A DNA stretch of 24,000 nucleotides from Candidatus Pacearchaeota archaeon (GCA_049511795.1 JBEKXS010000002.1:32326-56325); one strand, 5' to 3'. Positions 9,015 to 11,996 are shown, counted from the first letter of the stretch. The notes: generated from the sequence alone by a model not told the origin. Made by a program: numbers and translations.

Positions 9015-11996
9015 TTATCCCAAATAACTTCCTTCAAGAGGCACAGCTGTCTTTGCACTCTTTATGAATGTGTCTTCAATCTTTTTATAGACTTCAAGCA
9101 ATGGTTTGCTTACGCTTGGTTTTATTTTCTTCATTGCCTCATTAAAATGCTCTTCTGTCACAAACTTTGCATCCATTGATTCCCTTAAAGCAAGCATAGC
9201 AGCTTCCCTTGCCAATGCTTCAAGATCAGCACCAGTATAACCTTCTGTTTTTTTTGCAAGTTCTTTCAAAATAGATTCTCTTTTTTCAGGAGTCAAAAGT
9301 TTTTTGTCATCTCCAATTGGCATTTTCTTTGTGTGGATTTCCAAAATATTTAGTCTTCCTTTTTCCTCTGGCGCTCCAACAAGAAGAATCTTGTCAAATC
9401 TTCCAGGACGCAAAATTCCTGGATCGAGCATATCAGGCCTATTTGTCGCTCCAATAACAAGAATATCATGCAAATCTTCAAGACCATCCATTTCAGCAAG
9501 CATTTGATTAAGAACTCTTTCTGTAACTTTTGTTCCAGAATCCACGCCTCTTCTACCAGCCAAAGAATCAATTTCATCAAAGAATATTACACAAGGAGCA
9601 ACTTGCCTTGCTCTTTCAAATATTTTTCTCATTCCTTCTTCTGATTTTCCAACCCACATGCTTAACAAACTTGGGCCTTTAACATTAATGAAATTTGCTT
9701 CAGATTCTTTTGCAACTGCTTTTGCAAGCAAGGTTTTTCCTGTTCCAGGAGGACCGTAAAGCAAAATTCCTCTTGAGGGTCTTATTCCCATTCTTATGAA
9801 TGTTTCAGGATGCTTCAATGGCCATTCAACAGCTTCTTTTAACTCACTTTTAATATTTTCAAGGCCACCAACTCCTTCCCATCCAATAGTTGGTGTTTCA
9901 ACAAGAACTTCTCTCATTGCACTTGGTCTTACTGTTTTAAGAGAATCAAAAAAGTCCTGTTTTTTTATGACTAGTTTCTCCAACATTTCTTTTGGTATCT
10001 GTTCCTCAGCTTCAAGTTTCATTTTTGGAAGAACTTTTCTTAGAACATTCATTGCAGCTTCTTTTGTAAGTGCTTCCAAATCTGCACCAACAAAACCATG
10101 AGTTGGTCCAGATAATTCGTCTAGGAGAAGAGGTATTGAATCTCTTCTAATATTATCTAACAAATCTTCAGAAATTATATCTTGATTCATTAAATCTTCT
10201 AATATTAAAGAGTACTCTTCACTTTTATCTTGAAGTTCTTTAGAATTTAAAATGCTTCTTGGGTCGCTATTTCCTCTTATTCTAATAACTTCTGTCAAAG
10301 ATTCTATATCTTTTAATATTTTATCAAGTAGAATTTTATCTTTTGTAATCTCTTCTTGTCTAGACTTAATTATTTTAGCATTTTGTTTAATTATAGGAAG
10401 GCTAAATCCATTTTTTTCAATTTCTTTTTTTAATTTACTCATTTTTTCATTCATTTTATAAAAAGAGTTATCTATATTCTCAATTTCTTCTTTTAAGGTA
10501 TCTACTTCAGCTTTTTTTCTTCTTAACTCAGCTTGGGATACTCTTCCGGATTCAAAATCAATTCTAGCCTTAACAAATTCTTTATTCTTTTTTTCTAATT
10601 CCATAAATTTCTCGTCTCTAAGAAGAGATAAGTTTTTTTCATCATTTATAGTACTCTTTAAATCTTTTTGATTTTCAACTAAATCCTCTTCCATTTTTGA
10701 TATTTTTTCAGAGTAATTTCCTTCAAAAAGAGTCAGACGTTCTAATAATAATTTTCTAGCAATCTTCGCATCCCAATGGTTAATAGGCATTCCTCTTGAA
10801 TGAATTTTCAAAATTGAAAGCCTTCCTTCTTTTCCAGGAACATTAATTTCTATTTCTCTGTCAAATCTTCCAGGTCTTCTCAAAGCAGGGTCAATTGAAT
10901 TAACTCTGTTTGTTGCTCCGATAACAACTACCTTGCCTCTTGATTTCAAGCCATCCATTAATGTAAGCATCTGGGAAACAACTCTTCTCTCAACTTCTCC
11001 TGTTACTTCTTCTCTCTTAGGAGCAATTGCATCAAGCTCATCAATGAAAATAATTGCCGGAGCTGTTTTTTCAGCTTCTTCAAAAATATCTCTTATTTTT
11101 TTCTCTGATTCTCCGTAAAATTTGCTCATTATTTCAGGGCCATTAAGAAGAATGAAGTTTGCATCTGATTCATTTGCAACAGCCTTGGCCAGAAGTGTTT
11201 TTCCTGTTCCAGGTGGTCCATGAAGAAGAACTCCTTTAGGGGGTTCTACTCCTAATTTTTCAAATATTTCAGGATGCTTCAATGGAATCTCTACCATTTC
11301 CCTGATTTTCTTTATTTCTTCTGACAGACCACCAATATCCTCATAAGTTATTTCAGGTATTGATTCTTCTGTTATTTCAACAGCTTTAGGATTCAATGTG
11401 ACTTCTGTATTTTCTGTTATAACAACTGGCTGGCTAGGATTTGTGCTTATTACTAAGAATTTTATTTGGGTGAATCCTCCACCAAGCTGTCCCCCAAAAC
11501 CCATTCCTCCAAGCATATCTCCTATTCCACCTAACATATCTCCAAAATCTCCACCGAATTCATCAGAAAATAAATCTCTTCTTCTCTGGACTCCGCCAAG
11601 AACAACAACATCTCCTTTTATCATTGCTCTTCCAAGCAGTCCTCTTCGCAAATTCTCTGGCTCTGCCTGAACCATTATGTTTTTTTGCGCAGGTGCAATC
11701 ATTACTTTTTTTGCTTCCTTAATTTCTGCTTTTGAAACTTTCACTGATTCTCCTATTCCCGTTTTTGAATTTTTTCTTAGAATTCCGTCAATCCTTATTA
11801 TTCCCTCACCAACATCTGCAGGATAAGCCCTGTCAGCAATTGCAACTGTCTCTCGATTTCCTTTTATGAGAATAACATCTCCTCTTCTTATTCCTAAATC
11901 TCTCATGACATCGCTGTCTATTCTGGCTATGCCTTTGTAAGCATCATCCTGTTGTGCTTCAACAACTTTAAGCTGAACTTCTTTTTTGTCTGTCAT
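9015..11996 (-). CDS. cdc48: Cdc48/VAT-type AAA+ ATPase (two AAA domains) with two atypical insertions
   Basis: N domain [37 protein letters not shown]1 has [16 protein letters not shown] and pore loop SKFYGESE. D2 has [16 protein letters not shown] and pore loop SMWVGKSE. 993 aa from the ATG at 11996; the track start at 12020 is a TTG 8 codons upstream and overlaps another ORF. The C-terminus ...EGSYLG resembles an HbYX motif but is offset by one residue. Confidence 0.9.

Follow-up and report, generated by a model that had tools for sequence, protein, structure and literature searches.

A length-variable predicted coiled-coil arm in the D1 lid of an archaeal Cdc48 subfamily

Introduction

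The Cdc48/p97/VAT ATPases are among the best-studied protein machines. In eukaryotes, the specificity of Cdc48/p97 is provided by dozens of adaptors that bind to the N-domain or to the C-terminal tail, and the interface between the N-domain and the first AAA module (D1) controls the activity of p97 and is mutated in human disease. In archaea, to our knowledge, almost no Cdc48/VAT adaptors are known. Here we examine a 217-residue insert in the D1 lid of a Cdc48/VAT-type ATPase from a Candidatus Pacearchaeota archaeon. The gene lies on a stretch of 24,000 nucleotides (GCA_049511795.1 JBEKXS010000002.1:32326-56325), which we refer to as the window; an earlier note, made from this sequence alone, had drawn attention to the insert.

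Several AAA machines carry accessory elements in comparable positions. The stalk and the buttress of dynein are antiparallel coiled-coil hairpins that emerge from the AAA4 and AAA5 lids and relay the nucleotide state over more than 10 nm; the stalk ends in a globular microtubule-binding domain and is not homologous to the Cdc48 arm, which has a five-residue turn at its tip. The M-domain of ClpB, Hsp104 and ClpC is a coiled coil in the first AAA lid, positioned on the exterior of the ring, which interacts with Hsp70 or MecA and controls ATPase activity; ClpA has no such domain, ClpC a small one and ClpB a large one (PMC5319980; PMC4428496). Rix7/NVL (in D1 and D2) and p97 (in D2) contain insertions of 10-15 residues after lid helix alpha7 that touch the neighboring protomer, and those of Rix7 are needed for function (PMC6355894).

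The closest described systems to the protein itself are canonical VAT (Thermoplasma, PDB 5g4f/5vc7) and p97/Cdc48, with which it shares the N-D1-D2 order, the Walker motifs and the aromatic pore loops; the match to VAT has a phmmer E-value of 8e-231. None of the Cdc48/VAT/p97 structures in the PDB list contains a domain at the loop in question. No description of the insert was found in the open-access full-text literature, where absence is no proof, and the insert apparently represents a previously undescribed accessory domain of a Cdc48 subfamily.

Results

The gene and its insert occupy the following window positions (residue numbers refer to the 993-residue protein):

9015-11996, minus strand: CDC48/VAT-type AAA+ ATPase gene with ATG start and stop codon included, 993 amino acids (aa), from the open reading frame (ORF), Pfam and TIGR01243
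10128-10778, minus strand: insert, aa 407-623, 217 residues, with boundaries from phmmer; VAT and p97 have no counterpart

Alignment by phmmer to PDB sequences pairs residues 173-406 with VAT 143-377 and residues 624-976 with VAT 386-726. In the alignment with p97, residues 172-405 correspond to p97 155-390, and the match restarts at p97 396. The protein therefore contains 217 residues where VAT has 8 and p97 has 5, located between the D1 lid helices alpha5 and alpha6. The earlier note had described an in-frame D1-lid insertion at 10122-10784 (aa 405-625); this description is upheld at about 217 aa, its limits agree within two residues with those from the alignments, and the three peptide strings that it quoted are all found in the translation. 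Canonical spacing, rather than a comparable segment in most archaeal Cdc48 proteins, is the rule among close relatives: 106 of the 120 nearest protein clusters measure 760-779 aa, with 13-15 residues between 'HxRxMP' and 'THGFVGAD'. In the alignment, insert-less relatives carry the loop 'KDVNLDEIASV' at this site. The DNA of the insert is indeed more AT-rich than the AAA flanks, with a GC content of 20-29% versus 33-40%, because the encoded segment is rich in K, E, N, I, L and D and poor in G, A, V and P. Residue G402 aligns with N387 of p97, and the insert begins four to five residues further on. This asparagine is a residue of the interface between the N-terminal domain and D1, faces R155, and its mutation shifts the up/down equilibrium of the N-domain (PMC5102582).

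An exhaustive search of 1.84 billion representative proteins with a profile of four inserts produced four strong matches, all from Cdc48 proteins with an insert at the same site; the remaining matches were generic coiled coils at E>1e-6. A word-indexed homologue search with the insert alone returned no matches, parent protein included, a result that we ascribe to the limits of this method on low-complexity sequence. We also constructed a DNA pattern by back-translation of the junction motif L-x-I-H-[ST]-R-x-M-P-[LI]-x-x-W-[DE]. In the window and the fetched loci, this pattern matched all genes with the insert and did not match the gene without it. A scan of one genome per GTDB species yielded 35 loci. 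Of these, 32 are Cdc48 genes, 27 of which contain the whole insert (111-293 aa) on the fetched stretch. The same scan of JGI metagenomes added 37 loci, about 31 of them scorable. Altogether, about 60 Cdc48 genes from at least six archaeal lineages encode a homologous insert, most commonly of 204 aa. The GTDB hosts are Ca. Methanoperedens (ANME-2d, several species including M. nitroreducens), Thermoplasmatales, Methanosarcinales, metagenome-assembled genomes assigned to 'Methanobacteriota', Aenigmatarchaeota, Altiarchaeota, and Woese-, Pace- and Nanoarchaeota. What had been noted in a single protein is therefore not a one-off, but extends over several archaeal phyla.

Conservation within this family is uneven. 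The coiled-coil stretch that the earlier note had emphasized is present, but the best-conserved parts of the insert are its two ends, which form a base, and the middle is a hairpin of variable length. The N-terminal anchor reads (H/N/Y)-W-(D/E)-x-x-(I/V)-A...L...F-E, and the C-terminal part reads K-x-(I/L)-L...R-G/E-x-E-D-x-R-x-x-F...D-L...(I/V)-(I/V)-S...S before it passes into alpha6. The HW[DE] and RGxxDxR motifs and the base helices are kept from Methanoperedens (locus GC 40-46%) to DPANN archaea. The central region is missing in forms of 111-114 aa and enlarged stepwise in others, which results in a natural series of 0, 111, 135, 174, 204, 227, 255 and 293 aa.

The two arms of the hairpin change length together. 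Ascending and descending arms measure 3/31, 18/39, 30/66, 46/80, 60/89 (window), 71/106 and 88/126 residues. With the center split at the tip, the two lengths correlate with a Pearson r of 0.987 over 50 unique sequences, a value that overstates the number of independent events since these sequences are mutually related. The paired change fits an antiparallel hairpin and provides support for this fold that is independent of AlphaFold. Methanoperedens, Aenigmatarchaeota, Nanoarchaeia and Woesearchaeota share the 204-aa form without any difference in length, although their Cdc48 cores have only some 55-60% identity to that of the window protein. Just past the tip, this form contains an amphipathic motif, ...L-x-(R/K)-I-L-x-K-I-x-x-K-(K/Q)-x-x-I, part of which is lost in the 227-aa form of the window. 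The longest inserts (loci L008, L016 and L019) contain near-perfect internal tandem repeats in both arms, such as two copies of AEKNSKISE(I/M)N(T/I)EIKQLN, two copies of LELDR(I/T)NSDKKKLL, and two copies plus a partial third copy of NNIGGIENKLRSLE. These repeats indicate that the arm grows by in-frame duplication.

Structure prediction by AlphaFold2 (AF2) was run on the full-length protein with 23 sequences and on the D1 lid together with the insert, for which 7 insert-bearing sequences were used. The two runs gave the same helix-turn-helix hairpin and base, with predicted local distance difference test (pLDDT) values of 73-91 for the hairpin, which exceed those of much of the N-domain. Combined with the alignments, the models divide the insert as follows:

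10719-10781, minus strand: N-terminal anchor helix, aa 406-426, from alignments of 8 and 32 family members
10551-10769, minus strand: ascending hairpin helix, aa 410-482 (AF2 full-length model 410-482; lid-only model 410-423 and 428-482)
10536-10550, minus strand: hairpin tip, aa 483-487 (ESGRV), a helix break in both AF2 models on which the indels of homologues are centered
10275-10535, minus strand: descending hairpin helix, aa 488-574 (AF2 488-552 and 554-574, or 488-574; heptad scan)
10245-10277, minus strand: loop at the hairpin foot, aa 574-584, with the family motif R-G-x-x-D-x-R-x-x-F/L, from insert alignments
10110-10226, minus strand: C-terminal base helices, aa 591-629 (AF2 593-604 and 610-629; invariant columns; comparison with the insert-less loop)

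In the anchor helix, W408 is invariant and D/E409, L421 and F424 are nearly so in both alignments. R574, G575, D578 and R580 of the foot loop are invariant in the four closest inserts; in the 32-sequence alignment only the aspartate attains 80% conservation, and several members differ at the R and G positions. AF2 confidence is low for residues 574-590. L602, S609 and S620 are conserved in the base helices, the last stretch of which is the counterpart of the canonical lid helix alpha6 and leads to THGFVGADL. The insert is thus predicted to consist of a conserved base of about 110 aa (HW[DE] anchor helix, RGxxDxR loop and three short helices) and an antiparallel hairpin with arms of about 60-90 residues each in the window protein. 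At 1.5 Å per residue, the predicted helices correspond by our own arithmetic to a hairpin of about 11-13 nm. Extrapolating from the monomer model, we infer that six such arms would project from the rim of the D1 ring in the hexamer.

The earlier description of this segment as coiled-coil-like is fair, and most clearly so for the descending arm, for which a strict heptad scan found a clean run at 485-533 and hydrophobic residues recur with a 3.5-residue period (p ~0.001 for 488-552; ~0.001-0.0025 for the descending helix). AF2 predicts helices in both arms, but the periodicity of the ascending arm (410-482) is not significant (p ~0.3). Most homologues show the 3.5-residue period in one or both arms.

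Searches of Pfam, NCBIfam and PDB sequences assigned the insert to no known domain family, and hence to no known mobile domain. Weak matches to bZIP, tropomyosin, fibrinogen, SMC and p85 were mutually inconsistent and were rejected as compositional. Two circumstances could nevertheless point to a chimeric assembly, a mis-called frame, or an intein or homing endonuclease: the GC content of the insert is below that of its flanks, and inteins are known in this gene family. Mis-assembly can be eliminated, since the gene DNA is base-identical on one JGI and one Logan contig and the exact 993-aa protein is encoded on 10 contigs of differing source (JGI 3300038427 and Logan SRR13021904 among them). 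The frame stays open over 217 codons of DNA with about 25% GC, which by our own arithmetic has a chance of about 2e-9 in random DNA of this composition. The junctions (MPI/NHWD... and ...LSGP/THGF, the slash marking the boundary) contain no Cys, Ser or Thr at the start and no His-Asn followed by Cys, Ser or Thr at the end, as the earlier note had read them, and Pfam detected neither Hint (Intein_splicing) nor LAGLIDADG in the insert even at E<=10. As a positive control, Intein_splicing (E = 1e-14 to 1e-26) and LAGLIDADG_3 (E = 1e-18 to 1e-24) were readily detected in loci L009, L051 and L035. The true intein of protein P0023 reads NGPEVM/CVSG...LMHN/SKFYG, and the inteins of relatives sit in the alpha/beta cores with C...HN/S junctions, alongside the coiled-coil insert in the same gene. 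We can therefore also exclude an intein or homing endonuclease. As about 60 genes carry homologous inserts at one and the same codon position, we consider an artifact or a mobile element of any of these kinds extremely improbable.

The inteins themselves measure about 450-480 aa (LAGLIDADG) and occur in the insert-bearing loci L018 (=P0023), L009, L035 and L051, probably also in L024 and L045. They interrupt D1 after NGPEVM, or D2, and give ORFs of 1260-1495 aa.

The Cdc48 gene resides at a conserved housekeeping locus of Pace- and Woesearchaeota. The gene order TFIIS ... Zn-ribbon/AbrB-like ORF - Cdc48 - MetAP - PUA - RsmB - PolB is common to the insert-bearing loci L001, L002 and L004 and to the insert-less L003 (P0038). 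With the insert removed, the core of the window protein has 87% identity to P0002 and P0009, which carry no insert, and only 76-80% identity to the insert-bearing P0040, P0023 and P0025. The core phylogeny was computed by neighbor joining on 744 core columns with 200 bootstraps and is not a full likelihood analysis. In this tree the insert is present in every outgroup (Methanoperedens, Aenigmatarchaeota, Methanosarcinales, Nanoarchaeia and L036), and in the Pace/Woese crown group genes with and without it are interleaved: P0040 is basal in the crown group (bootstrap 97), P0023 is basal to the clade of the window (95), and P0025 is sister to the insert-less P0117 and P0092 (100). The simplest reading of this pattern is an ancestral insert followed by repeated loss. 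Alternatively, alleles may have been exchanged by recombination, which would explain why all insert-less genes contain the same 15-residue 'KDVNL...' loop. In a sliding-window comparison, the window protein sides with its insert-less relatives along its whole length. The lack of a tract that switches allegiance speaks against a recent recombinational acquisition by this gene; it tells neither for nor against an older exchange.

Compared with that of L043, the nearest insert-bearing relative, the insert shows 51% identity, and its 217 residues align without any indel. For this pair, dN/dS ratios (nonsynonymous over synonymous substitution rates, Nei-Gojobori) are about 0.40 for the insert (base 0.29, hairpin 0.45) and 0.13 for the core, but are rough because dS exceeds 1 and is saturated. 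These values indicate that the insert is under weaker but real constraint, evolving faster than the core and below the neutral rate. From the family as a whole we conclude that the arm is a domain that is inherited within an archaeal Cdc48 subfamily and has been lengthened, shortened and lost many times.

The genome that encodes P0040 contains a second, insert-less Cdc48 paralogue of 742 aa (L001 5366-7594, plus strand). It lies a few hundred bases downstream of the insert-bearing gene, with a 134-aa ORF between them, and branches outside the entire insert-bearing clade in a tree of D1 cores.

Other insertions were encountered at the same and at the equivalent site. P0013 and P0087, two close relatives, contain helical inserts of 93-98 aa in the same D1 loop; these do not have the HW[DE] motif, were rejected as homologues of the arm (hhalign probability 1.3%) and look like independent insertions. 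The equivalent loop of the D2 lid (after HTKKMP; window 9279-9317, minus strand, aa 894-906) has about 10 extra residues relative to VAT in the window protein and 50-80 extra residues in P0091, P0048 and P0050. The distant, insert-bearing P0121 has a D2 insert of about 90 aa with two CxxC pairs that resembles a zinc ribbon. The D2-lid inserts of P0091 and similar proteins were likewise rejected as homologues (hhalign probability about 1%).

Outside the insert, the protein comprises the following modules:

11373-11975, minus strand: N-terminal substrate/adaptor domain, aa 8-208 (Pfam CDC48_N 8-91 and CDC48_2 112-208), with a Gly-rich loop at 136-172
10842-11231, minus strand: D1 AAA alpha/beta core, aa 256-385 (Pfam), with Walker A GPPGTGKT, Walker B IIFIDELD and pore loop KFYG
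10785-10832, minus strand: D1 lid helix alpha5, aa 389-404 (AF2 helix 389-400; p97 alignment)
10017-10109, minus strand: rest of the D1 lid, aa 630-660, helix alpha7 (AF2 helix 637-658; alignment to VAT resumes at 624)
9066-9881, minus strand: D2 AAA module and lid, aa 706-977 (Pfam), with Walker A GPPGTGKT and pore loop MWVG

Read from a TTG codon, the ORF would span 9015-12020 (minus strand); the ATG at 11996 gives the 993-aa protein, in agreement with the N-termini of homologues. Its database twin (P0001) is annotated 'CDC48 family AAA ATPase [Candidatus Pacearchaeota archaeon]'. Pfam detects CDC48_N (94.2 bits, cut-off 35.1), CDC48_2 (33 bits, cut-off 22.4), two AAA and two AAA_lid_3 domains, and NCBIfam TIGR01243 (CDC48) scores 1016.5 bits against a cut-off of 802.65, with residues 7-977 covering positions 2-729 of the 733-position model. 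The translation contains GPPGTGKT twice as well as DE Walker B motifs, and the aromatic pore loops of D1 (KFYG) and D2 (MWVG) both align to those of VAT in phmmer. The motifs indicate that the gene encodes an ordinary and apparently catalytically complete Cdc48/VAT double-ring unfoldase. Its identification as a bona fide Cdc48/VAT in the earlier note is confirmed by Pfam, by TIGR01243 and by the alignments to VAT and p97.

A Gly-rich segment of about 37 aa (aa 136-172; window 11481-11591, minus strand) lies inside CDC48_2 (Nc), has no counterpart in VAT and is found in aligned Pace/Woese relatives with and without the D1 insert. The pLDDT is below 50 for aa 92-213, this segment included. HbYX is a C-terminal motif for docking to the 20S proteasome; the C-terminus of the window protein (9015-9029, minus strand) reads ...EGSYLG, with a tyrosine at position -3, and is not a textbook HbYX. 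The distant insert-bearing P0122 and P0123 end in ...KAYR, which is compatible with the HbYX pattern.

Directly upstream of Cdc48, an ORF of 143 aa (window 12126-12557, minus strand) encodes an N-terminal CxxC...CxxC zinc ribbon and a weak AbrB/MazE/SpoVT-like match. This ORF is kept in place in 14 DPANN loci, the insert-less L003 included, and may form a conserved gene pair with Cdc48. Directly downstream lies a gene for a stand-alone response-regulator receiver domain of 140 aa (8562-8984, minus strand), the 3' end of which overlaps the convergent MetAP gene (7676-8581, plus strand) by 20 nucleotides. The receiver gene is present in the strain of the window (L004, L005) and absent from L001, L002 and L003. 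A tRNA-Lys(CTT) (14734-14809, plus strand) is the only Rfam or ARAGORN match in the 24-kb window.

Discussion

How does this arm compare with the lid elements of other AAA machines? The likeness to the M-domain is one of topology only: in both cases a double-ring unfoldase has a coiled coil, for Cdc48 a predicted one, inserted in the small subdomain of its first AAA module, and the size series of the M-domain parallels the series of 0, 111, 204 and 293 aa of the Cdc48 arm. The M-domain consists of four helices in two wings and is hosted by Clp/Hsp100 proteins, whereas the arm is predicted to form one long hairpin with short base helices and is hosted by classic-clade AAA proteins; the insert has no Pfam or NCBIfam match to the Clp family. 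Membership in the M-domain family was rejected for reasons of homology, fold detail and host clade, and the resemblance is an analogy that arose by convergence rather than by common ancestry. The suggestion in the earlier note that such arms would be a new peripheral structure on an unfoldase is thus correct for Cdc48, but the M-domain of ClpB/Hsp104/ClpC is a known analogue.

The insertions of Rix7/NVL and p97 are likewise lineage-specific lid insertions in type II classic AAA ATPases. They follow alpha7, whereas the arm follows alpha5 (HSRGMP), precedes alpha6 and alpha7, comprises 217 residues and forms an autonomous hairpin. The fold class is confirmed by the best Foldseek and HMM matches (SMC/JetC arms, the Vipp1/PspA hairpin, EmrA and the iSH2 domain of PI3K p85). 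These generic hairpin matches either lack significance (Foldseek E >= 0.055) or reflect composition, and none of them is inserted in an AAA lid.

On balance, we think it somewhat probable that this inherited D1-lid accessory domain serves as a peripheral docking or regulatory arm of Cdc48. By analogy, its most likely role would be protein-protein interaction combined with regulation. Because the insert starts four to five residues past the equivalent of p97 N387, the conserved base would be placed at the D1 ring's rim, beside the docking ("down") site of the N-domain, and would bear the hairpin. The arm might recruit a partner, be it an adaptor, a co-chaperone or a substrate class, or it might couple partner binding to the position of the N-domain and to the nucleotide state of D1. 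The M-domains of ClpB/Hsp104 (Hsp70 docking, ATPase repression) and ClpC (MecA docking) are the closest functional precedents, and the core threading mechanism would remain unchanged by the arm. We regard as unlikely the more far-reaching proposal that the subfamily found in Methanoperedens, Thermoplasmatales, Aenigmatarchaeota and Woese-, Pace- and Nanoarchaeota convergently evolved its own 'M-domain'. Such a length-tunable arm at the N-D1 interface would dock a partner and gate the ATPase, making these proteins regulated, adaptor-dependent (possibly disaggregase-like) forms of Cdc48, and the near-invariant 204-residue form, as a molecular ruler, would fix where the partner lies with respect to the pore.

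Several observations weigh against a docking or regulatory arm. It is dispensable in evolution, given that the nearest relatives with 87% core identity do not have it and the tree is interleaved. The hairpin sequence is poorly conserved (27-36% identity), and in the AF2 models the hairpin has nothing but a turn at its tip and lacks a globular head. No partner gene was found; the sole conserved neighbor, the 143-aa ORF, also accompanies the insert-less orthologue. Chains of ClpB, Hsp104 or ClpC are not among the best 60 of 167 PDB profile matches at E<=10, nor is a ClpB structure among the 50 Foldseek matches listed. Unrelated insertions in the same D1 loop and in the equivalent D2 loop are consistent with a site that is simply permissive. 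The neighbor-joining tree and the saturated dS values count on the same side.

Some of these points would also fit a tolerated and largely functionless helical segment in a permissive alpha5-alpha6 loop, grown by slippage or duplication of a K/E/N/I-rich sequence in AT-rich genomes and kept because it is harmless. The range of lengths (111-293 aa), the tandem repeats of the longest forms (L008, L016, L019), the low GC content, the repeated loss among close relatives, the unrelated inserts in the D1 loop (P0013, P0087) and the D2 loop (P0091, P0048, P0050, P0121), and a hairpin that evolves three to four times faster than the core are all compatible with such neutral expansion. This explanation is difficult to reconcile with the persistence of HW[DE], RGxxDxR and the base helices from Methanoperedens to DPANN, with a 204-aa length that is identical across phyla whose cores are 55-60% identical to that of the window, or with the absence of indels over 217 residues at 51% identity and dN/dS below 0.5. 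Nor would it predict that the arms change length in pairs, which preserves the hairpin, or that AF2 confidence in the insert surpasses that in much of the N-domain. For these reasons we find neutral expansion doubtful. We also give little credence to the idea that the arms mediate contacts between protomers or hexamers and recruit no separate partner, be it for ring stabilization (as the post-alpha7 insertions of Rix7), for a storage or resting oligomer (as the M-domains of ClpC) or for tethering. Long antiparallel coiled coils with exposed heptad seams, such as the heptads at 485-533, readily pair; the lid insertions of Rix7 touch the neighboring protomer and are needed for function (PMC6355894); and the absence of a partner gene linked to the insert would also be in line with an assembly element. 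However, insert-less orthologues and canonical Cdc48/VAT form hexamers without such an arm (established for VAT and p97; PDB entries), and a length that varies from 0 to about 13 nm seems ill-suited to a fixed lattice contact.

Conclusions

In public databases, the insert-bearing proteins appear under the generic name 'CDC48 family AAA ATPase'. With a natural series of arm lengths and with insert-less orthologues that are 87% identical in their cores, nature supplies a ready-made deletion and length series for this domain. Should the arm prove to be functionless, the family would at least be a record of a hot spot in AAA lids that is unusually tolerant of insertions. If the arm does dock partners or regulate activity, it would represent a second independent case of the design of ClpB, Hsp104 and ClpC, in which a coiled coil is placed in the first AAA lid, and a built-in arm near the N-D1 interface would be a new regulatory solution for the Cdc48 family.

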